From: Candidatus Dojkabacteria bacterium
GTDB lineage: Bacteria; Patescibacteriota; Dojkabacteria; J137
DNA length: 64,000 nt
Reading direction: 5' to 3'
Assembly (NCBI GenBank): GCA_025999215.1
Contig: AP024679.1
Coordinates: 433,082 to 497,081 of the forward strand
A program made the translations under genes and the position numbers. Under the pieces are notes generated by a model. That model ran no database searches and was not told the origin of the DNA. It saw only the letters and a program-made list of their open reading frames with translations. Positions 4,690 to 64,000 of the stretch are shown here, in pieces. The stretch's first letter is position 1. Each line of letters starts with the position of its first letter.

Positions 4690-4767
4690 TTATTTTTTTT
4701 AATAACTACTTAATCATTATAGTAGTAATTATTTTAATTTTCAACAGAACCGATTAGCTTATCAGGT

Positions 4768-4808
4768 AAAAAACAAAAATCCCCGTTGGGATTTTTGTTT
4801 TTTACCTC
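4768..4808. terminator. Bidirectional intrinsic terminator: a perfect 19 bp palindrome with internal U-tracts.
   Basis: The sequence is GGTAAAAAACAAAAATCCC-CGTT-GGGATTTTTGTTTTTTACC. It lies at the 3' end of the murA-murB-mutL-DUF192 operon and upstream of clpP. Confidence 0.5.
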
Positions 4809-8420: not shown

Positions 8421-9707
8421 CTATTTAACTTTTTCTATTTGTGCTCCAAGTGTTAAATAAGTTTCAACTAATTCAGGATAACGTCTGCTCAATTGATCTG
8501 TTTCGTCAATTAAGGTTGAAACGCCACTTGCACCAAGTGCCGCTACAAATAAAGCTTTGGCTGAAGCGATAATATTCGGAGCTTTGATTACTGTACCTTC
8601 TAATTTGCTTGGCCCAAAAGTTATCACTCTGTGAGGATCTGCCATTACAACATTTGCTTTAAGTTTTGCTAGCTCTTCTATGAAGTAAAAGCCGTACTCG
8701 TAAAATGAATTATGAAATATTAAACTTCCCTCTGCAAAACATGCAGCGACTACTAGTGATTGTATAGCATCAGGAGGAAATTGTGGCCAATGTAGCGCCA
8801 TAATTTGAAATAAATCTCCTCTAACAGTTTTGTGAGCTTTTAATTTTTGATTTTTAGGAATTATAAGTTTATCTCCTTCGTAGTAAGAGTTAAGATTTAT
8901 TTTTTCAAAGGCAGATCTAATATTTGTCATGTGTTCTGGAATTGCGTTATTTATAGTGAGCTCGCTTCCAGTGACAGCAGCTATTGCCATATATTCTGCG
9001 ATATCTAAATGATCACTTATCACATTCCACTCTGTTCCCTTAAGTTTATCTACACCATTTATCACTAATTTGTTAGAGCCAATGCCTTTAATTTTAGCTC
9101 CCATGCTAACCAACATGTTACATAAATCTTGAGTGTGAGGTTCACAAGCAGCATTGTAAATTTCTGTAACTCCAGGCGTTAGTACAGCCAAATTAATTAA
9201 ATTTTCTGTTCCTGTAACACTTGGAAACCAAGACCAAACTTTTGCGCCTTTTAATTTTTTTGCCTCTAAAAAATAACCTTTTTCTCTTCTGTAAACAGCA
9301 CCAAGTTGCACCATATTATCAATAAAAGCATCCAGTGGCCTTGAACCTAATTTACACCCCCCCGGTATAGGCATTTCAGCTTTTCCAAATCGATGAAGAA
9401 GTGGCGCCATAAACATTACAGAAGCCTTTGCTTTTTGGGATAAATCCTCATCGATTTTATAAGTATTAATACCTTTAGCTACTATTTTCACAGATGTTCC
9501 ATTGTTAAAATACGTAACCTTACCGCCGAGAGTTTTTACAATTTTAAGCATTATTCTTACATCAGAACTTTTAGGAACATTGTGTATGATTACTGGTTCA
9601 TCAGTCAATAAACTAGCTGGAATTAATTTTAAAATTGAATTTTTATTTGGAACTGGAGTAACCTCACCATTTAGTTCTATGCCTCCTTGAATTTTATATA
9701 CAGCCAT
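8421..9707 (-). CDS. murA: UDP-N-acetylglucosamine 1-carboxyvinyltransferase.
   Basis: The sequence MAVYKIQGGIELNGEVTPVPNKNSILKLIPASLL is the EPSP-synthase fold N-terminus. The length is 428 aa. Confidence 0.9.
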   Translation of the reverse strand: MAVYKIQGGIELNGEVTPVPNKNSILKLIPASLLTDEPVIIHNVPKSSDVRIMLKIVKTLGGKVTYFNNGTSVKIVAKGINTYKIDEDLSQKAKASVMFMAPLLHRFGKAEMPIPGGCKLGSRPLDAFIDNMVQLGAVYRREKGYFLEAKKLKGAKVWSWFPSVTGTENLINLAVLTPGVTEIYNAACEPHTQDLCNMLVSMGAKIKGIGSNKLVINGVDKLKGTEWNVISDHLDIAEYMAIAAVTGSELTINNAIPEHMTNIRSAFEKINLNSYYEGDKLIIPKNQKLKAHKTVRGDLFQIMALHWPQFPPDAIQSLVVAACFAEGSLIFHNSFYEYGFYFIEELAKLKANVVMADPHRVITFGPSKLEGTVIKAPNIIASAKALFVAALGASGVSTLIDETDQLSRRYPELVETYLTLGAQIEKVK

Positions 9708-9912
9708 TGATTAAATTTAAAATATTTTAATAATTATACCTTAAAATTAAAAATTACTCTAAAATTTCGAAAGGGGTAGTTAGATAATAACGTTAAAGTA
9801 TTTAGTATTCTAAAATTAAGAAAACCATTTTGCAGTTTTGGCTTTCTATGAGGATAACCAGGCCAGCAGCAAGGTCTATTTGCGCTTGTTGATTTTTTTT
9901 CTAAAATCAATA
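9688..9912. repeat. Copy A of a roughly 225 bp direct repeat. It spans the murA promoter/leader plus the first codons of murA.
   Basis: It is near-identical to 12190-12414 (over 95% in the promoter-proximal 130 bp and about 75% distally). It contains a TATAAT about 30 nt upstream of the murA ATG. Confidence 0.75.
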
Positions 9913-10088: not shown

Positions 10089-12113
10089 TTAATCAGGAAC
10101 TTTTTGTAGTAAAAATTCTCTACAGTAAATCCTGGGTGGTTTAGACCAATCTATTTCACCATCAGGTTTGCGCTCATGTAAAATAAAACATCCATATCCA
10201 TATTGCCTTAACCCTATTCTACTGATCACGATCACATTATTTTTTAATTTTAATAGTTCTTTAACATATTTGTGATGCTTACGGGTTGCGTACATATTTT
10301 CATATATTCCATACTTTATACCAAAGTTACATGTGTACACACTAACATGTTTGCCATCCTCACATGCTTTGACATTTAGAATGGGTTCAACTGGTACATA
10401 CTTGAATCCTGCCCTTTTCCAATTATCTACTGCTTGATATACTCTTAACCAAGAAATAAATTCTTCATTTGATATGACTCTTCTATTACTTTTGTTGTCT
10501 AGCTCTTCAGTAATAATTGGGGGCTTTTTCTCTGCTTTTGATATTTCTTTTATTTCTGATTTTTCAAGGTTTTCTATTAGTTTTAATACATCTTTTTCGA
10601 TTGGTTTTCTATTTTTTTCTGGCAGATACTCAAAATTCCAAGCAAACCCAGGCGCAGCTTCTTTTGGTGCCATATCAATAAGTAGTCTAGCTACCTGTAA
10701 TTGATTCCCTTCATGTAAAGATGGGAGTCTAAAAGCGACCTCGTAAGCGGTTCCTTTTGGGTTTACACCCATAAGTAACTTAATGACTGCTAATTGATTT
10801 TTTTCTGACAAGTCCCGAAGTTGCCAAGCCACATTGCGAAGAAATTCGTCATTAATTGCTTTGGGAGCTTTTTCTATAAGTGAAGTAATAATTTCTATTT
10901 GAGTATCTTCTGGTAAACATGCTAAATGGCCAGCGAGGTTCTCAGCAGACTCTTGAGGTGCTTTTTCAACAAGTAGTTTAGCAATATCTCCCCTAATATC
11001 TTCAGATATATCATCAATTTTGTCAGATAACGGGCCTGCCGTTGGATTTATATATTCATCCTTATGTAACATGTACAAAATTTCATTTTTGATTTCTTGG
11101 GGTAATTCTTCAAATTCGCAAATTTCCCGAGCAAGTTCAGGTGCCGCTTCTTTTGGTGCTATATCGAGCAGTAAATTAAAGATATGTATCATTTGCTTTT
11201 CAGAAATAAACTCGCCGACATAAAAAAGTTTTTTAGCAAGTTCAGGTGCAGCTTCTTTTGGTGCTTTCTCTAGAATTAATTTTAATATTTCCATTTGAGC
11301 TTTTTCTGGTAAATATATGGCCTGATTTGCAAGCCCTGGTGCAGCTTCTTTAGGAGCTTTTTCTATAAGCTTTTTTGCGAAGTCTGCTCTAACTTCTTCT
11401 GGAAGGTCATTAATACCCCAGGCAAGTTTAGGTGCAGCTTCTTTTGGTGCTATATCGAGAAGCTTGTTTGCAAAGTCTACTCTTGTTTCTTTTGGAAGAT
11501 AAGAAACACTCCAGGCAATTTCAGGTACCGCTTTTTTGAGGGCTACATCAAACAGTAAATTAACAATTTGTTTTCTATTTTCGTATGGAAAAGATTCTAT
11601 GGAGCTAGCGATTACTGGAGCCGCTTCTTTGGGGGCATTCTCTAGGAACCAAGGTAATGCTTCTCTTTTAACCTCTGATGGGAGGTACTTAAAATTTTCA
11701 TATTCAGCTATTGCAGAAGTCACTTTTTTTAAATTTTTCTCCTTTATATGTTTTAAGAGCATTTTACAGATTTTTGTAAAAACTGCTGGTTCAAGAAGGC
11801 GATACAAATCTGAAATAAAGTTAGCAAGTTTAACCCCAGCTTCCTCTGGAGCGATATCTAAAATCTCTTGGGTTTTTTCGAAATAATCTCCTTGTTGACT
11901 ACATAGTGATAACATCGCATCAGTTATTTTAAAGTTTATTGGATCATTTTCGATAATGTTCTGGTATTGCCTTTCTAAATTTTCAACTATTTTTTGAAAC
12001 TCATCCTGGGACCATTTAGGTGCACCTGGCAAATGATACATTTCATAGTTTGCTATCATGTTGCGTGCCGTTTCACTTAAACTTGAATTAATTGAGGAAG
12101 TATTTTGTGACAT
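10089..12113 (-). CDS. Repeat protein of 674 aa. It has about ten roughly 30-aa 'L(L)DIAPKEAAPxLA...LPEE' HEAT-like repeats and a roughly 140-aa C-terminal domain of unknown function.
   Basis: The long ORF is intact. The nucleotide-level periodic repeat (gcagcttcttttggtgc recurring about every 90-100 bp) translates to APKEAAP. The C-terminal region ...YGCFILHERKPDGEIDWSKPP... has no recognised motif. Confidence 0.65.
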   Translation of the reverse strand: MSQNTSSINSSLSETARNMIANYEMYHLPGAPKWSQDEFQKIVENLERQYQNIIENDPINFKITDAMLSLCSQQGDYFEKTQEILDIAPEEAGVKLANFISDLYRLLEPAVFTKICKMLLKHIKEKNLKKVTSAIAEYENFKYLPSEVKREALPWFLENAPKEAAPVIASSIESFPYENRKQIVNLLFDVALKKAVPEIAWSVSYLPKETRVDFANKLLDIAPKEAAPKLAWGINDLPEEVRADFAKKLIEKAPKEAAPGLANQAIYLPEKAQMEILKLILEKAPKEAAPELAKKLFYVGEFISEKQMIHIFNLLLDIAPKEAAPELAREICEFEELPQEIKNEILYMLHKDEYINPTAGPLSDKIDDISEDIRGDIAKLLVEKAPQESAENLAGHLACLPEDTQIEIITSLIEKAPKAINDEFLRNVAWQLRDLSEKNQLAVIKLLMGVNPKGTAYEVAFRLPSLHEGNQLQVARLLIDMAPKEAAPGFAWNFEYLPEKNRKPIEKDVLKLIENLEKSEIKEISKAEKKPPIITEELDNKSNRRVISNEEFISWLRVYQAVDNWKRAGFKYVPVEPILNVKACEDGKHVSVYTCNFGIKYGIYENMYATRKHHKYVKELLKLKNNVIVISRIGLRQYGYGCFILHERKPDGEIDWSKPPRIYCREFLLQKVPD

Positions 12114-12148: not shown

Positions 12149-12205
12149 CTACAACATACTCAATGCATCTAACTCTACGCCTCCTTTAATTTTGTATACA
12201 GCAAT
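12149..12205 (-). pseudogene. Remnant of the murA 5' end (about 18 codons, no start codon).
   Basis: It translates to IAVYKIKGGVELDALSML*, matching the murA N-terminus MAVYKIQGGIELNGEV. It lies at the inner edge of repeat copy B, directly upstream of the 674-aa gene. Confidence 0.6.
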
Positions 12206-12414
12206 TGATTAAATTTAAAATATTTTAATAATTATACCTTAAAATTTAAAATTACTCTAAAATTTTGAAAGGGGTAGTTAGATAATAACGTTAAAGTATT
12301 TAGTATTCTAAAATTAAGAAAACCTTTTTTTCATTTTGGATTTCTGTGAGAACAACTAGGCCAGCAATAAGATGTTTTTGCACCTGTAGATATTTCTTTT
12401 TCTAAAAGGTTTAA
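12190..12414. repeat. Copy B of the roughly 225 bp promoter/leader direct repeat.
   Basis: See copy A. Here it now drives the 674-aa repeat-protein gene. Confidence 0.75.
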
Positions 12415-14690: not shown

Positions 14691-15963
14691 AATTTAATTT
14701 AGTTTCTGAGTATAAACCTGCTGGTGATCAACCACGAGCGATTGATACGCTTTCTAATGGTTTGCTTGCTGGGAATCAAGCACCAAACGCTTGGTTGGTG
14801 CGACCGGAACTGGTAAAACTTTTACAATGGCAAATATCATACAAAATCTTGGGAAACCTGCTTTAATTCTTTCTCACAACAAAACTTTAGCTGCTCAATT
14901 GTTTGCTGAATTTAAAAAATTTTTTCCTTACAATGCTGTTGAGTATTTTGTGAGTTACTACGATTATTATCAGCCTGAGGCTTATGTTCCCTCAAGAGAT
15001 TTGTATATTGAGAAAGATGCCGATATAAACGACACAATTGAGCGGTACAGGTCTTCAGCTAGCCAGTCGCTTTTGACAAGAAAGGATGTGATTGTAATTT
15101 CAACCGTTAGTTGTATCTATGGGCTAGGGAATCCTGCAGATTATTTAGAATTAAGTTTTGAATTTAATGTTGGGGAAAGTTATAAACGCGATAATATTTT
15201 AGCGCGACTAACAGATATGCAGTATGAAAGAAACCAACTTGATTTCATGCCTGGGAGTTTTAGAGCCATTGGTGAGATTATTGATATTTATTTAACAAAT
15301 GCAAATGATGAAGCTGTAAGGTTAGAGTTTTTTGGTGATGAATTGGAATCTATAAAGATAATTAATCCTCTAACAGGCGAGTTTGTAAAAAATTTAAATT
15401 CAGTTATTATTTTTCCTGCCAAACACTATGTAAGTCCACATCATAAACTAATGGAAACGATTGAAACAATAAGAGAAGATATGAAAAAAGAAGTTCAGCA
15501 ATTTTTGGATAAAGGAAAGGTGGTGGAAGCAACGAGACTTAAGCAAAGGGTTGAATATGATTTGGAAATGATTGCTGAAACAGGTTTTGTAAAAGGCATT
15601 GAAAATTATTCTAGATACATTGACAGAAGACCACCCGGAAGTGCGCCATCATGTTTAATTGATTATTTTCCTCATGATTACATTATGTTTATTGATGAAT
15701 CACATATAACTGTTCCGCAAATTGGAGGAATGTACAATGGCGATCGCGCACGGAAACAGAGCTTGGTAGATTATGGTTTTAGGATGAAAGCAGCGCTAGA
15801 TAATCGACCTTTGAAATTTGAAGAATTTGAACAAAAATTAAACCAAGTTATTTACACCACGGCAACGCCAAGGGATTATGAAATTCAGAAAAGCATGAAT
15901 GCAACAGAAGAAATTAGGGAAAAAAGCCCTCAAATATTCAGTGGAAAAATGTTAGAATATTAG
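14687..15963 (+). CDS. uvrB: Excinuclease ABC subunit B, N-terminal roughly 415-residue portion only. There is a -1 frameshift near 14775-14795 and a premature end at 15963.
   Basis: MEFNLVSEYKPAGDQPRAIDTLSNGLLAGN (frame 2) continues as LVGATGTGKTFTMANII...YFVSYYDYYQPEAYVP...FIDESHITVPQIGGMYNGDRARKQSLVDYGFRMKAALDNRPLKFEEF...YTTATPRDYEIQKS (frame 1), which is canonical UvrB. After EIQKS the frame diverges and stops. Confidence 0.85.
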
Positions 15964-15999: not shown

Positions 16000-16808
16000 A
16001 TGGTGATGGGTCTTGCTGAGGTTATCCCTGGAGTGAGTGGGTCAACCATGGCTTTGGTGATGGGTATTTATGATGATTTCATCAATCTACTCTACTCTTT
16101 TTCAAAGTTGGCGCAAAATTGTGTTGAGTTTTTGTTTCGAAAGAAAAGATTTTTTTGATCTTAAACAAGAGTTGACTGAACTATCTAGAATGGGGTTTTG
16201 CTATACCTTTGTTTTTCGGCATGATTGTGTCAATTTTATCTTTTGCCAATATTTTAAACTATTTCATTGATAAATCACCGGGTTACGTGCTTGCTTTTTT
16301 CTTTGGATTGGTGGTCGCATCGGTGTCAATTCCACTTCAGAGAGTTGGTAAGACCCAACATTTTGAAAGTTCTTTTGTTCTTGCTTCTCTCTTGCTTTTT
16401 TCTATTTTTTGCTTGGAGTTGATCCTATTGAGTTAAACGGTAAGCCAAATTTAGTTTATGTATTTTGTTGGGGGTATGCTTGCCATTTGCGCAATGAGTT
16501 TGCCTGGAATTAGCGGTTCTTTTATTTTGCTATTGTTGGGTTTGTATGAATACATTATTTCTATAATTAAAGATTTGTCTCATTTTAAGTTTAACTTCAG
16601 TGATTTTACTAGGTTGGTTGTTCTTTCTTTTGGTGTGGTGGCTGGATTTGTATTGTTTGTGAGAATACTAAAATGGTTGCTTTCAAAATACGAGGGCGAA
16701 TTGATGGCTTTTCTTGCAGGCTTGATGTTGGCATCGCTAAGAATTTTGTGGCCATTTATCGATAATTCACAGGAAGTTTCGAGAGTTTGGATGCTTATCC
16801 CAAGGTGA
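16000..16808 (+). pseudogene. DUF368 (COG2035) membrane protein gene with three or more frameshifts.
   Basis: The pieces VIPGVSGSTMALVMGIY..., FFGMIVSILSFANILNYFIDKSPGYVLAFFFGLVVAS and LPGISGSFILLLLGLYEYI are successive parts of one DUF368 protein, spread across three frames. Confidence 0.6.
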
Positions 16809-59037: not shown

Positions 59038-60468
59038 ATGAAAAAATCTTTAATAATTTTGCTGACAATTTTTTTTGTGTGTTGCTGTTTACTAATTTTA
59101 GGATTTATTGTTATTTTTACATTAAGCTCTGAAAGATTTAATCTAAAAGGAAAATATCAAGCAGAAACTCCTCATGAAGGAATAGAAATGTTTTTGGCAG
59201 ATACTCTAATTACTTTTGTTGATAATTTAGATTTTAGTAGTGAGCAAAATCTTGCACGTTCTTTATCAGACAGCAATGCTTTAGGTAATTCCGTAGTAGA
59301 AGTTTTTGAAAAAACAAAATTTTTGCAATATCCAGAATTTTCTAAAGAAAATAATTCAATTGAAGCTGTTTTAAATTTTTCAGTAATAAATTCTGATGTA
59401 AATGCTAAATTTGATTCTAATTGGATTGTTGAATACGGAGATGAAAAGTTTAATAGAGATAGTTTAAAAGGAAAATTATCAAAAACTGAAGTTGAAAAGA
59501 TAATTAGAAGTTTTCCGAAACTTCAGGTGACTGGAAATTTAGAAAGTACTGAACTGGATGGAGAAATTGATTTTGACGCAAGATTTATGGAAGGAAAACT
59601 TTATGTTAGTTTCGGAGATCAAGCTTTAGAAGTCTTGGAAGTTCCAAGTGATATATTTTCAAATAATTTTGTTAAACTTAATTTAAATGAAACTATTGTA
59701 AACTCTACCCTTCAAAATCAAGAAGATTTTTTGACAGAAGAACAAATTGATTTTTTTACTGATGATGAAGATATAACAAAGTTATATCAAAATGAAGCTA
59801 AAATAAAGAAAAATTTAAGAAAAATTTTGAGAAATGGAAAAATTTTTAGTGATGTTGAAGAAATTGATTCTAAGTTATTTCCTTTGGCAGTTAATTGCTA
59901 CAACGGTCAAGTGGATACAACAGAAATGAGACAAAGTTTTGAAAAGTATGGATTAGAGTTAGTAACTCTTCTTACTCCTGATTTAGAAGATCCTATTGAA
60001 GCTTTTAACCAAACTTTGGACTCTTTAATTGATGCAGAGAAGTTTTTTGATGAAAATGAAACTTTTATAAATTACTGTGTTGATAAGAATAAAAACTTTT
60101 CTGGTTTGGAAGTTACCATTGAAGCAAGTAATTTTGAATTTAAATTAAATTATTTCTTAAAAGATTTAAATTCTAGTAAAAAAATTACTAAACCGCAAGA
60201 TTATTTTGATATTACAGATTTGGTTTTATCTTCTGATGGCACAGTTAACTTAGGTACTCTATTTAGTGGCAATTTATACAACTTAGAGAATAATCATGAC
60301 GAACTTACACCTAAGAAAAGTGATGAATTTATTTATAACTCAAACATTGATTGGGATAAGTATTTAAAAGACGTTGATGAAATAATCAAAGAGTTTGAAA
60401 ACGGAAATATTGACTATGAAGAGTATTTGAAAAGATTTGATGAGCTAAATTTGAAGTATGGTGTTTGA
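59038..60468 (+). CDS. Hypothetical N-anchored extracytoplasmic protein (476 aa).
   Basis: It has a signal-anchor LIILLTIFFVCCCLLILGFIVIF. No motif was recognised. Confidence 0.45.
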   Translation: MKKSLIILLTIFFVCCCLLILGFIVIFTLSSERFNLKGKYQAETPHEGIEMFLADTLITFVDNLDFSSEQNLARSLSDSNALGNSVVEVFEKTKFLQYPEFSKENNSIEAVLNFSVINSDVNAKFDSNWIVEYGDEKFNRDSLKGKLSKTEVEKIIRSFPKLQVTGNLESTELDGEIDFDARFMEGKLYVSFGDQALEVLEVPSDIFSNNFVKLNLNETIVNSTLQNQEDFLTEEQIDFFTDDEDITKLYQNEAKIKKNLRKILRNGKIFSDVEEIDSKLFPLAVNCYNGQVDTTEMRQSFEKYGLELVTLLTPDLEDPIEAFNQTLDSLIDAEKFFDENETFINYCVDKNKNFSGLEVTIEASNFEFKLNYFLKDLNSSKKITKPQDYFDITDLVLSSDGTVNLGTLFSGNLYNLENNHDELTPKKSDEFIYNSNIDWDKYLKDVDEIIKEFENGNIDYEEYLKRFDELNLKYGV

Positions 60469-60693
60469 TGTGATTTTGAGATATGGTTCATAATATAATA
60501 GTTTTACGACTTAAATTTATTTTGATATTGATAACTTAAGTAAAATCTTTTATAGATCCACAAGTTTTTTGGTTTATAGGTGTAATAAAAATTTTAAGTA
60601 TAAGTTAAATTTAAAGTGGTTTTAAAAAGTTGGGAAGTATGTTATAATGTAATCGGTTTGAATTAGCTCAAGCAACGCTAAAGGAGAATAGCC

Positions 60694-61314
60694 ATGAGCG
60701 AGCACGTTAAGAAAACATATCTTCTTGTGATTTTTGTATTGCCAATGATTATACTTATACTACTACTTATTATTGGTGGGGAAGACACCCATGATCACAA
60801 AGTAGAGGTGTTTGATCAAATCTATATCCCCTCCATGGTTTTGGAAGTAGATATAGCTTTCTATTGTACTGTTGAAGGTCCTCCTCCAGAGAAAATGGAG
60901 AAGGATTGGATAGGTACTGTTCAATTCTTGAATGTTAAAGTTAACAAAGTAAGTAAAGAATTGAACATAGAAGAAACGAATATTTTGGATATTTGGTACA
61001 GTGTTGATGTAAACATTGTATCATTTGAACGCATTCAGTTCCCTGATCTAGATCAGGGATCAGAACTCTTCCGCTGTATGCCGGAGGGTTTTGAGTATGA
61101 TCAGGTTGTACAAGATTTCATGGCGTATCGGGTCATGCGAGATCTTTTGAGATCAGATAATGTTGATCTTGAAAGAATAAGAGATGTGAGCCATAGTGTC
61201 ATAATTTGGTATATAAAGACCGAACTGAAAAGGCTCGGTCGAATCATAGGGTTGGTGTATAGAGGACAGGTGTTAAATTACAATAAACCAACACCTACTC
61301 TATGGTTAAATTAG
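60694..61314 (+). CDS. Hypothetical N-anchored protein (206 aa) of atypical composition (higher GC, strong AAAGGAG SD).
   Basis: The ORF is intact. It is preceded by an extended -10 promoter (TGTTATAAT) and followed by a 13 bp perfect inverted repeat (61321-61365). Confidence 0.5.
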   Translation: MSEHVKKTYLLVIFVLPMIILILLLIIGGEDTHDHKVEVFDQIYIPSMVLEVDIAFYCTVEGPPPEKMEKDWIGTVQFLNVKVNKVSKELNIEETNILDIWYSVDVNIVSFERIQFPDLDQGSELFRCMPEGFEYDQVVQDFMAYRVMRDLLRSDNVDLERIRDVSHSVIIWYIKTELKRLGRIIGLVYRGQVLNYNKPTPTLWLN

Positions 61315-61547
61315 TATACATGATGAATCCTATGTTTATTTTATCATAGGATTCATCACAAAGTTTTCCTTGCAGAAAAATAGTTTTGTTGATTAAATTA
61401 AGATTTTTGCTTAATTTTTTTTAAACAAAAAATTATCAATGGTCAAAAACAAGATGTGATATTTACAATGTTTGTGCACAAACAATTATCATTGATGATT
61501 TTATGGTATAATTAAAAGGATTGCGAAAGTACAGACAAGGAGCAATT

Positions 61548-61772
61548 ATGGAGCTGCTGATTGGTTCTTTACAAATTTTGGGAGCATTTCCGATTGCATT
61601 CCTGAACATGGTGAACTCAATTTTTATTATCGTCCTTGCAACAATTTTAATATCAGTGGGTTTTATTACAAACACACTGATTTTAATCGATGTAGGTAGT
61701 TTGCTGTTTGCTACAGCAATAGCAATTTACTTACTATTTTGGTTACTATATGTAGTAACCAAAGCAAAATAA
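61548..61772 (+). CDS. Small membrane protein (roughly 75 aa, 2-3 TM).
   Basis: MELLIGSLQILGAFPIAF...LLFWLLYVVTKAK is preceded by an AAGGAG SD. A strong terminator follows. Confidence 0.45.
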   Translation: MELLIGSLQILGAFPIAFLNMVNSIFIIVLATILISVGFITNTLILIDVGSLLFATAIAIYLLFWLLYVVTKAK

Positions 61773-61782
61773 AAATCATAAG

Positions 61783-61810
61783 CCCCTTCGGGGGCTTTTT
61801 TTCTTTTTTT
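61783..61810 (+). terminator. Rho-independent terminator.
   Basis: AAGCCCCTTCGGGGGCTTTTTTTC forms a GC stem with a TTCG loop and a T-tract. Confidence 0.8.
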
Positions 61811-61933
61811 AATCTTTCATTTATAAAATTTTTTAAATTAAATTTAAAGCTAATTTTTTAATTTTTATTAATTTGTTTTAACTTAAAATGTTTTTATTAA
61901 TTTCCTAATGATTTTATTGTATAATGAATTTAT

Positions 61934-62007
61934 GGTGTGGTAGCCAAGTGGTTTAAGGCGAGGGTCTGCAAAACCCTTATGCGCGGGTTCGAATCCCGCT
62001 CACACCT
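61934..62007 (+). tRNA. tRNA-Cys (anticodon GCA), U73 discriminator. No encoded CCA.
   Basis: Acceptor GGTGTGG/TCACACC, anticodon stem AGGGT/ACCCT with loop CTGCAAA, and T arm GCGGG-TTCGAAT-CCCGC. Confidence 0.8.
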
Positions 62008-62008
62008 T

Positions 62009-62665
62009 TTAATTTTTCTGATCCCAAAGAAAACCTGTGTTGGTGATATACAAATTGTAGGTTTGTGGAGTGTTTAATACAAATTGACCGGGAACTGATA
62101 GCTGGGTTGTATCAATGAAAAAATTGTAAATTTTAGATTTAAAGGAATCTTTTGATAAATTTTCACTCAAATCTTTCCATGTTGCATCAATTCCACCGTT
62201 TAGATCGTAGTTTGAGAATTGCATTTGAATTTCATTTTTGTTAATTTCTTTTTCATTATCAATGTTGTACCTTCCGAATATTTTGGCAACTTTATAAATC
62301 GTTTTAAAATCAAGCAAAATTAAATTGTCTTTAAATTTTATAATTGGACCACCAATGTGAATGCTATCGCCGTACACTTTAAACTCTTGTTCACTTGCCT
62401 CCTCTACCCTAGTTTCATCTTTAAAAAAAATTCTTGCTAGAGCTGATTGATTTTTGATAGGTTTATATTTTACTATTGCAAATTCTCCATTTTCATCTTG
62501 TCTCAATTCTGAGATACTAACTTCAGCAACTAAAGTTTTATCAGTGAAAACCTGATAAGTACGAAGCCAAATGCCTACAAAGCTTGTTGCAGAAATTAAC
62601 AAACAAGCAAACAAAAAAAGACTTAGCAAAATTAAAGATAGAATTATTTTATTTAAAGTTTTCAT
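62009..62665 (-). CDS. Hypothetical N-anchored secreted protein (218 aa).
   Basis: It has a signal-anchor ILSLILLSLFLFACLLISA. No motif was recognised. Confidence 0.45.
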   Translation of the reverse strand: MKTLNKIILSLILLSLFLFACLLISATSFVGIWLRTYQVFTDKTLVAEVSISELRQDENGEFAIVKYKPIKNQSALARIFFKDETRVEEASEQEFKVYGDSIHIGGPIIKFKDNLILLDFKTIYKVAKIFGRYNIDNEKEINKNEIQMQFSNYDLNGGIDATWKDLSENLSKDSFKSKIYNFFIDTTQLSVPGQFVLNTPQTYNLYITNTGFLWDQKN

Positions 62666-62704
62666 TGTTTAATTATAACTATCAAATGGCACAATTACAA
62701 ATTT

Positions 62705-63232
62705 ATGATAAAATTTTATATGCAAAAATTATCAAAAAAAGAAATTAAAAAAATTTTTAAACATGAGCAAAGAAGCAAATTAATTCATGTGGTTGCAGAA
62801 AATATTCAATATGCCAAAAATGTAGCGAGTATATTTAGAATATGCGATGCTGGAGGAGTTTCAAGACTATATTTAACAGGAATATCGCATACGCCACCAT
62901 TTGGTAAAGAATTGCGGAAAGTATCTCGAAATAAAGAAAAAAGTGTTGAGTGGCATTATTTTGAAAGCTCTGTGAAATTACTTTCTAGTCTCAAAAGTCA
63001 AGGTTTTAAAATAATTGCTATTGAACTTTGTAGAGAGTCTTTTCCTATTCAAGAATTAAGAGACAAAATCAAACCTTTTGATAAAATTTGTCTGGTTGTA
63101 GGTAATGAAGTTTATGGAGTTACTAGTCGTACTTTGGACGTTTGCGACATGGCAACAGTCATTCCAATGTATGGCAAAGGCGCAAGCCTCAATGTAACTA
63201 GTAGCTTAGCAATAGCGCTTTTCAACTCCTAA
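62705..63232 (+). CDS. SpoU/TrmH-family RNA 2'-O-methyltransferase (TrmL-like).
   Basis: The SPOUT motifs LVVGNEVYGV and VIPMYGKGASLNVTSSLAIALF are present. Confidence 0.7.
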   Translation: MIKFYMQKLSKKEIKKIFKHEQRSKLIHVVAENIQYAKNVASIFRICDAGGVSRLYLTGISHTPPFGKELRKVSRNKEKSVEWHYFESSVKLLSSLKSQGFKIIAIELCRESFPIQELRDKIKPFDKICLVVGNEVYGVTSRTLDVCDMATVIPMYGKGASLNVTSSLAIALFNS

Positions 63233-63239
63233 AATTACT

Positions 63240-63683
63240 TTAAAATGGCAAATCATCAGGATCTATAGAATCATCTACAGAATCATCATTATTCGATGTT
63301 GCCTTGGTATCAGAGCTAGATTCTGCTTTGTTTTCATCAGATCCACCTTCGTATCTTGCCACCAAAATCACATCGTCAGCATTTACCTCTGTTTTGTATT
63401 GCTTTTGACCTTCACTGTTTTCCCAGCTTCTAGTTTGTAGTCTTCCTTCAATGTAAACTCTGGTGCCTTTTTTTATTCTTTGCGCAAGAGCTTCTGCATT
63501 TCTCCAAACCACAATGTTGTGGTAAGTAACTTCGTTTTCCCATTCATCATTTTTTTTGTAACTTCTGTTGGTTGCTATTCCAAAGTTTAAAACAGCGCTT
63601 CCGCTAGGTGTAAATCTCAAATCAGGCTCATTGGTTACATTCCCCATTAAAATTACTTTGTTGACGTCTCCGAACATGCTCAT
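63240..63683 (-). CDS. ssb: Single-stranded DNA-binding protein.
   Basis: It has an OB-fold (NKVILMGNVTNEPDLRFTPSGSAVLNFGIATNR...WHNIVVW) and an acidic tail ending DDLPF. Confidence 0.9.
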   Translation of the reverse strand: MSMFGDVNKVILMGNVTNEPDLRFTPSGSAVLNFGIATNRSYKKNDEWENEVTYHNIVVWRNAEALAQRIKKGTRVYIEGRLQTRSWENSEGQKQYKTEVNADDVILVARYEGGSDENKAESSSDTKATSNNDDSVDDSIDPDDLPF

Positions 63684-63779
63684 TTTTTAAAATTAATAAA
63701 TATTTACTTATTATAGTTTTTTTTGATTAAAATGTAAAACTTAAAAATTCTAAAAAAATTTAAATGTTATAATCAAAAT

Positions 63780-64000
63780 ATGAGTTTAATTCTTCCAAAA
63801 AATTACAAAGGTGTTGTCAAACAAGTGATTAGACCAACTGGGCTTTTGGATCCATTGGTTGAGGTCAGGCCAACCATGCCTGAAACTTTTGACAAACTTA
63901 AATTATCTTTACGAGAAAATGGATATGAAGACATGCCCACCTACAAAAAAACAACATGGTTAAAACCACAAATTCCTGATTTAATCGAAGAAATTGAAAA
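63780..64000 (+). CDS. uvrB: Excinuclease ABC subunit B, C-terminal portion (3' truncated by the window). It has its own ATG and an extended -10 promoter.
   Basis: [32 protein letters not shown] matches UvrB ...[23 protein letters not shown], exactly where the 14.7-16.0 kb copy breaks off. TGTTATAAT lies 9 nt upstream of the ATG. Confidence 0.8.
   Translation, partial: [73 protein letters not shown]

Follow-up and report, generated by a model that had tools for sequence, protein, structure and literature searches.

A genomic islet of about 1.2 kb, placed between the gene of a 476-aa protein (p476) and a tRNA-Cys gene, is described here in a 64-kb window of an 862-kb metagenome-assembled genome of Candidatus Dojkabacteria (KatS3mg085); the window, namely the whole stretch of DNA that was analysed, has a guanine plus cytosine (GC) content of 31.8%. 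The reading that best accounts for the origin and architecture of the islet, with a probability of roughly 0.6, is that two self-contained units of foreign origin, similar to the morons of phages, occupy a slot whose content changes from one lineage to another. Each unit contains one open reading frame (ORF) for a predicted membrane protein and, judged by their coding and expression signals, ORF1 and ORF2 are real genes specific to this lineage. The reading is carried by a set of expression and translation-initiation signals found nowhere else in the window, by the codon use of the two genes, and by the absence of the islet from the matching position in relatives with common flanks. The host genome is a tiny one from a hot spring, and the KatS3mg prefix fits the Katase hot-spring sediment metagenome study (PMC9671151). 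The sequence from 60439 to 64000 is 100% identical in an independent Logan assembly of the run DRR290133, and this identity rules out a chimera or another assembly artefact at the junctions of the islet.

A preliminary description of this DNA had presented the region as a single cassette with one promoter. However, ORF2 has an extended -10 promoter of its own, so two transcription units and not one are predicted, each formed by an extended -10 promoter, a leader with AAGGAG, an ORF for a membrane protein, and a 3' hairpin. The elements of the first unit are the following.

60621..60648, plus strand: ORF1 promoter, formed by TTTAAA, a 16-nt spacer, and TATAAT with a TG extension; TGTTATAAT at 60640-60648
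60681..60686, plus strand: Shine-Dalgarno sequence AAGGAG of ORF1, 7 nt before its ATG
60694..61314, plus strand: ORF1 (KatS3mg085_473), 206 aa, ~24 kDa, with a predicted single-pass anchor and an acidic C-terminal domain
61040..61059, no strand: palindrome TCCCTGATCTAGATCAGGGA, 20 bp, perfect, inside ORF1
61321..61358, plus strand: ORF1 3' hairpin, with a 14-bp perfect stem (61321-61334 / 61345-61358), a 10-nt loop, and a weak U tract

The extended -10 promoter at the start of the islet, the strong AAGGAG before each gene, and the 206-aa N-anchored protein had all been noticed earlier and are found as described. The ORF1 promoter matches the consensus in 10 of 12 positions in addition to the TG, its -35-like hexamer being TTTAAA, and is followed by a predicted leader of ~45 nt; the window contains TGNTATAAT 14 times, in comparison to 5.5 expected. 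ORF1 contains one hydrophobic stretch (residues 4-33), in which the predicted membrane anchor spans approximately residues 8-28, and the Lys-Lys pair that precedes this segment leads to a predicted N-in topology; the C-terminal domain comprises 177 aa with an isoelectric point of 4.75 and two Cys residues. The open frame of 210 codons was reached in 0/1000 dinucleotide shuffles and is thus beyond chance, and the GC contents of the three codon positions (GC1 0.50, GC2 0.26, and GC3 0.35) show a periodicity of the coding type. The AlphaFold2 model obtained without alignment has a predicted local distance difference test score (pLDDT) of 44 for the full protein and of 36 for the C-terminal domain alone, the transmembrane helix being the only confident element. 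The internal palindrome TCCCTGATCTAGATCAGGGA, previously measured as 16 bp, is perfect over 20 bp; it is the sole palindrome of at least 18 bp in the window other than those made purely of A/T and has no near-copy within the window, and two of the three long palindromes of the window that are not purely A/T fall inside the 1.2-kb islet. One exact match to it in IMG/VR sits in an unrelated terminator hairpin and was discarded as a coincidence. The inverted repeat between the two genes is perfect as reported, its length being 14 and not 13 bp; the hairpin that it forms starts 7 nt past the stop codon, has a folding energy of -20.6 kcal/mol (z -4.75, 0/200 shuffles), and is probably the 3' end or a stabiliser of the transcript.

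The second unit, whose gene starts 233 bp after the end of ORF1, is composed of the following elements.

61469..61484, no strand: palindrome TGTTTGTGCACAAACA, 16 bp, perfect, abutting the -35 position of the ORF2 promoter
61495..61515, plus strand: ORF2 promoter region, with the extended -10 TGGTATAAT at 61504-61512
61537..61542, plus strand: Shine-Dalgarno sequence AAGGAG of ORF2, 5 nt before its ATG
61548..61772, plus strand: ORF2 (KatS3mg085_474), 74 aa, ~8 kDa, with two to three predicted membrane spans
61780..61810, plus strand: intrinsic terminator, AAGCCCC-TTCG-GGGGCTT (61780-61797) followed by T7CT7, which ends ORF2

ORF2 corresponds to the protein of roughly 75 aa with 2-3 transmembrane segments that had been proposed; it is hydrophobic throughout (grand average of hydropathy, GRAVY, 1.78) apart from the four hydrophilic residues TKAK at the C-terminus, and in the NCBI annotation it starts at the TTG in 61521 and has 83 aa. 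Its open frame was reached in 33/1000 shuffles and is by itself weaker evidence than the ORF1 frame; the gene is also backed by its promoter, by a well-spaced Shine-Dalgarno sequence in a 35-nt leader, by the ATG, and by the terminator. The palindrome TGTTTGTGCACAAACA, of which the window holds no other good copy, is possibly the binding site of a regulator. The promoter region of ORF2 is identical in 19 of 21 positions to that of tRNA-Cys (61908-61928), where 0.09 matches are expected, and for this reason the similarity is probably due to a local duplication. The terminator had been indicated as the strongest GC-stem terminator of the window, about 120 bp before tRNA-Cys; it has in fact the best pure-GC stem, though it is third in a crude free-energy scan, and its T-run ends ~123 nt before the tRNA gene, a position from which it is predicted to insulate the tRNA-Cys promoter. 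Since a T7-C-T6 tail is also present on the terminator at the same position in the closest relative, L012, the ORF2 terminator may be resident and not imported. The strongest terminator-like site of the window is a perfect hairpin at 4764-4807, whose 20-bp stem is bordered on either side by a T-run and which is predicted to act as a bidirectional terminator.

The initiation signals of the two genes, the most telling evidence obtained, set them apart from the rest of the window, to which the analysis of both translation signals and composition refers. When both strands of the 64 kb were searched for a Shine-Dalgarno hexamer followed after 3-10 nt by a start codon at the true start of an ORF, two cases were found, namely ORF1 and ORF2; in the other 52 ORFs, the start is not preceded within 21 nt even by a core of GGAG, GAGG, or AGGA, and rplT and ssb are likewise devoid of a Shine-Dalgarno site. 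Resident genes show a different organisation: in 11 of them a -10-like hexamer ends exactly 5-6 nt before the start codon, in comparison to a background of about one per position, and this sharp peak is the signature expected of leaderless mRNAs, which implies that such mRNAs are widespread in this Dojkabacteria genome. Examples of starts of the leaderless type are 14020, 26594, 46894, 51417, 52944 (minus strand), 56397, and 62665 (minus strand). A promoter, an AAGGAG at optimal spacing, an ATG, and a 3' hairpin occur together in ORF1 and ORF2 and nowhere else in the window. The two genes, with their AAGGAG and their leaders of 45 and 35 nt, are therefore built unlike all the other genes of the window, which argues for a foreign donor that uses Shine-Dalgarno sequences. 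A permissive count of Shine-Dalgarno sequences at any candidate start across the relatives was too noisy and was not used, and a literature search on Shine-Dalgarno or leaderless usage in bacteria of the candidate phyla radiation (CPR) found nothing directly relevant.

As for composition, the GC content of the region had been described as visibly higher than that of its neighbours. This is valid for ORF1 (36.9%), but not for ORF2 (32.9%) nor for the spacer between them, in which 300-nt windows have ~28%; moreover, the 300-bp GC maximum of ORF1 (0.403, z 2.05) is equalled by 15 other regions of the window, so raw GC is no outlier. The different codon choices noted at the same time are instead evident in both genes. 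The GC3 of ORF1 is 0.353 in comparison to 0.228 +/- 0.040 for 53 ORFs and, when codon use is conditioned on amino-acid content, ORF1 is the most atypical of 54 ORFs (z -4.97) and ORF2 the fourth (z -2.4); the synonymous GC3 of ORF1 is 0.313, where 0.206 is expected (z +3.7). The compositional anomaly sits at synonymous sites and not in raw GC, and a comparison of the islet with its surroundings thus gives a divided outcome, with codon use out of range and raw GC within it. The DHH phosphoesterase gene and p476, directly upstream, stand at the opposite AT-rich extreme of codon use, p476 having the most AT-rich synonymous sites of the window, and this results in a sharp local contrast with the islet.

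Homologues of the two proteins were sought extensively. A word-seeded search of 5.8 billion clusters returned only the ORF1 and ORF2 queries themselves, and phmmer with ORF1 against 1.84 billion representatives returned only ORF1; nothing significant was found for ORF1 in Pfam, PHROGs, PADLOC, NCBIfam, and the PDB sequences, and no family match for ORF2 in Pfam, PHROGs, PADLOC, and NCBIfam. The best match of the family and PDB searches, a SecD fragment with an E value of 0.03, was judged to be noise. No match to ORF1 was obtained by tblastn in the phage and plasmid collections, no relatives in back-translated scans of IMG/VR and of the JGI metagenomes, and neither homologues nor paralogues of ORF1 and ORF2 when every ORF in the window and in 30 related loci was compared by phmmer and blastp. 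With Rfam, only the tRNA reached the gathering threshold and nothing credible was present at E <= 1.

Related loci were fetched by means of homologues (33 proteins) of p218, a conserved neighbour of the islet. The elements that delimit the slot in the window are listed below; the conserved genes around the islet are those of iPGM, DHH phosphoesterase, SpoU, and SSB, together with the tRNA.

59038..60468, plus strand: p476, left boundary of the slot; 476-aa N-anchored, fast-evolving protein, resident and not cargo
61908..61928, plus strand: tRNA-Cys promoter region, with TATAAT at 61920-61925; second copy of the 21-nt repeat
61934..62007, plus strand: tRNA-Cys(GCA), right boundary of the slot, resident; near-identical in L012
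62009..62665, minus strand: p218, conserved Dojkabacteria membrane protein, convergent with tRNA-Cys; resident context

The closest relative, L012, is a 169-kb JGI contig in which the order and orientations of the genes are the same as in the window, iPGM-DHH-p476-like-[slot]-tRNA-Cys-p218(-)-SpoU-SSB, with amino-acid identities of 82% for iPGM, 77% for TGT, 77% for SSB, 72% for SpoU, 67% for p218, 55% for DHH, and 23% for p476. The comparison with relatives that the preliminary description had suggested as a check shows that the islet is not conserved: L012, with the same flanks, holds unrelated DNA in a slot of 1.1 kb (8728-9820, minus strand), whose GC content is 43-50% in a locus that has mostly 25-39%. 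Around the slot, only the T-rich terminator tail, the tRNA promoter, and the tRNA gene can be aligned between the window and L012. The L012 slot has a promoter TTGACA-17-TAGAGT and two near-identical GC-rich terminators, GGCGCCCCGAAGGGGCGC and AGCGCCCCTGAAGGGCGC, both with T7C after them; the ORFs called in it, of 132 and 117 aa with TTG starts, are doubtful. The folding of the slot sequence, which is present in two JGI samples, is stronger than that of shuffles (z -3.1 and -4.3), and Rfam gave no match. The slot could consist of foreign genes or of structured RNAs. In L014 (p218 identity 61%) the slot is occupied by the gene of a 492-aa N-anchored repeat protein and tRNA-Cys has the other orientation, whereas L003, with the order iPGM-p558-p221-tRNA-Cys-SpoU, has no cargo in the slot. 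The slot of the window has no similarity to those of L014 and L012 beyond the T-rich terminator tail. Despite common flanks, the islet is absent from the matching position in L012, L014, and L003, the nearest of which is distant (iPGM 82%).

The tRNA gene itself has the reverse orientation of that in most relatives. The p218 gene is linked to tRNA-Cys in most of the relatives; in 11 of them (L003, L014, L017, L022-L024, L026-L028, L030, and L033) the tRNA immediately follows the p218-family gene and shares its strand. The window and L012 are the only cases in which tRNA-Cys is inverted in place, its 3' end adjoining the p218 stop codon, and has acquired a promoter of its own; in the window, the -10 box of this promoter stops 8 nt short of the mature 5' end. 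To judge from these comparisons, the content of the slot varies with the lineage, and the region has undergone repeated rearrangement. The protein at the p476 position is itself divergent: its homologues, located at 9821-10954 in L012, 6705-8234 in L014, and 3798-5474 in L003, have 377-558 aa and 21-23% identity where iPGM has 57-82%. The C-terminal motif (I/L)xYEEY(L/V)...L...YG(V/L) is shared by the window and L003, while L014 has LTLDEYL...SEYGYDY. No family match to p476 was found in the family-library scan, and a look-up of contigs bearing p476 elsewhere found none on record.

If the islet is a foreign insertion, its DNA would come from a donor that uses Shine-Dalgarno sequences, which may be another bacterium, a phage, or a plasmid, and would have entered without a site-specific recombinase encoded next to it, through illegitimate recombination or through homologous exchange via the conserved flanks. 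Transcription of ORF2 would start from a locally copied tRNA-Cys promoter. ORF1 is predicted to be a bitopic protein with its acidic domain outside the membrane, and ORF2 an integral membrane protein.

The horizontally acquired cargo at a tRNA locus that had been proposed is supported in one part only, that of foreign and non-conserved cargo. The remaining part, a tRNA-targeted integrative island of which the islet would be the remnant after the loss of a tyrosine or serine integrase, agrees with the proximity of tRNA-Cys and with the atypical codon use, but the 3' end of the tRNA gene is where elements of this type integrate, and the islet lies 5' of tRNA-Cys (it ends at 61810, and the tRNA occupies 61934-62007 on the plus strand). 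In addition, the partial tRNA-Cys duplicate that would represent an attachment site (att), suspected near the left end, was found nowhere in the window, the best match to the tRNA body outside the gene being 12 nt, and the matches of 13-15 nt derive from the A/T-rich 3' flank of tRNA-Cys and are far from the islet. A direct repeat identical in 15 of 16 positions, TAAGTTAAATTTAAAG / TAAATTAAATTTAAAG, does bracket the islet; however, it is A/T-rich and not significant (17/500 ungapped and 75/1000 gapped shuffles), and an equal or better match is given by 14 of 153 intergenic pairs. The reported lack of an integrase is borne out by the ~16 kb scanned upstream and by the downstream genes: no integrase or mobility gene was detected by Pfam scans of the ORFs in 47.8-63.2 kb, nor in the precomputed Pfam annotation of the downstream genes and of the L012 syntenic genes. 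An island of this kind is consequently regarded as very improbable. No better prospects are accorded to a functional module of two proteins, either a toxin/immunity pair or a lysis pair of the holin type, which had been suggested by the two neighbouring membrane proteins, one anchored and the other small with 2-3 spans; the size of ORF2 is within the holin range. Against this pairing stands the separation of the genes into distinct units by a 233-bp gap holding a strong hairpin and a separate promoter; furthermore, no toxin, immunity, or holin domain was matched in Pfam, PHROGs, PADLOC, and NCBIfam, no endolysin or phage genes are present nearby, and ORF2 ends merely with TKAK and has no charged tail.

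It is also unlikely, though less so than the preceding alternatives, that ORF1 and ORF2 are resident genes diverged beyond recognition, namely old and fast-evolving envelope genes that were never transferred. The behaviour of p476, which keeps 23% identity where iPGM keeps 82%, the richness of the locus in N-anchored proteins, and the host-type promoters of the two genes are in line with this explanation. Nevertheless, a long residence should align codon use and translation signals with those of the genome, whereas ORF1 and ORF2 are among the most atypical genes and the sole ones led by a Shine-Dalgarno sequence, and the slot of L012 has another length, GC (43-50%), and organisation in addition to another sequence. 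That the ORFs, and especially ORF2, are non-functional or newly arisen has a slight chance: homologues were nowhere found, AlphaFold2 gave no confident fold, and ORF2, with its frame at 33/1000 in shuffles, was missed by one gene caller (Logan). Against this stand the frame of ORF1, at 0/1000 shuffles, with its coding periodicity, and the promoter, optimally spaced AAGGAG, ATG, and 3' hairpin that both ORFs possess, a combination unique in the window.

Several points weigh against the interpretation of the islet as two moron-like units of foreign origin. With neither donor nor homologue, composition and signals are the only grounds for the transfer; the shift in GC is small, raw GC being no outlier. 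The window covers 64 kb of 862 kb, and other resident genes led by Shine-Dalgarno sequences or rich in GC3 are possible elsewhere; likewise, the argument on translation signals presupposes an anti-Shine-Dalgarno sequence in the 16S rRNA of the host. Because the nearest relative is distant, the recency of the acquisition cannot be judged. The reality of ORF2 depends on its signals, given what its frame alone is worth, and the promoters of both genes are of the host's own extended -10 type. Finally, the structure predictions are poor at the pLDDT values given above, and nothing ties the products to a specific function.

As regards function, the weakest part of the interpretation, it is tentatively proposed that the products are accessory envelope proteins with a strain-specific surface, phage-exclusion, or host-interaction role, a possibility to which somewhat less than even odds are given. 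This suggestion is due to the predicted topology, to the presence at the locus of N-anchored proteins (p476, p218, and the repeat protein of L014), and to the analogy with the membrane proteins of morons. A broader and quite doubtful idea is that the site upstream of the inverted tRNA-Cys is a recurrent capture site, in which foreign units made of promoter, Shine-Dalgarno sequence, ORF, and terminator would be installed and replaced without an adjacent recombinase. The two genes led by AAGGAG in the window, the two units with 43-50% GC in L012, and the 492-aa repeat protein in L014 are in keeping with it. In that case, as the host mRNAs are otherwise devoid of Shine-Dalgarno sequences and often leaderless, the captured genes would use a different initiation route, which could make their expression conditional.

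The islet is an ordinary kind of thing, in that genes without relatives and specific to one lineage are what it adds to a CPR genome, and its description is modest and largely descriptive. Its value lies in the fact that CPR bacteria have very small genomes in which gene gain and expression are poorly understood, and that this locus presents clean lineage-specific cargo between conserved flanks. Where a host does without Shine-Dalgarno sequences and often has leaderless mRNAs, genes of foreign origin would stand out more clearly by their initiation signals than by GC. Strain-specific functions in the envelope of a probable symbiont, for example attachment to a host or exclusion of phages, are candidate roles of the two proteins.

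Other features were observed in the window far from the islet. A 233-nt direct repeat, 88% identical between its copies at 9668-9900 and 12166-12398, flanks the gene of a 674-aa protein (10089-12113, minus strand) that contains approximately five tandem repeats of 93 nt (31 aa) and has no Pfam match, with tRNA-Phe just beyond. UvrB is apparently split into two genes ~48 kb apart: the N-terminal part (14791-15963, plus strand) has ResIII/DEAD and UvrB interaction domains, and the C-terminal part (63780-64000, plus strand, running off the window), of 295 aa with Helicase_C, UvrB, and UVR domains, adjoins ssb and is a separate gene in L012 and L014 too. A 116-aa ORF at 16458-16808 (plus strand) matches the VCA0040-like undecaprenyl-phosphate translocase family only in its C-terminal part (positions 140-236 of 246), and its GC3, 0.376, is the highest of the window. 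The ORF follows an apparently non-coding stretch of 494 nt and may be a truncated or frameshifted gene.

Among known systems, integron gene cassettes consist of a promoterless ORF with an attC site and have IntI nearby, whereas the ORFs of the islet have promoters and no integrase was found; in addition, on reading the sequence by eye, the RYYYAAC and GTTRRRY cores of attC are absent from the ORF1 hairpin. Integrative islands linked to tRNA genes share with the islet the adjacency to a tRNA and the atypical composition, and differ from it in that the islet is on the 5' side, has no att duplication and no integrase, and measures 1.2 kb only. Genomic islets agree with it in the size of ~1.2 kb, the absence at the syntenic site in relatives, the atypical codon use, and the lack of integrase or transposase; the peculiarity of the present one is that its contents have no homologues, so that no donor can be named, and that its host is a reduced CPR genome, in which such islets are little documented. 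At the level of the single protein, ORF1 can be compared to the superinfection-exclusion proteins of prophages, for instance those of the lactococcal Sie2009 type, which are N-anchored membrane proteins. This is an analogy only, and it concerns a comparable size, the N-terminal anchor, the C-terminal domain outside the membrane, and the possession of a promoter of its own. Phage morons are autonomous extra transcription units in prophages, as in lambdoid phages, and are therefore located inside a prophage, while the islet is flanked by housekeeping genes and a tRNA, with no phage genes nearby and no significant PHROG match. Apart from the location, the islet resembles morons: it has, as read from its sequence only, its own promoters and a factor-independent terminator or hairpin for each unit, and it combines a composition unlike that of its surroundings with an insertion between conserved genes and small membrane proteins as predicted products.

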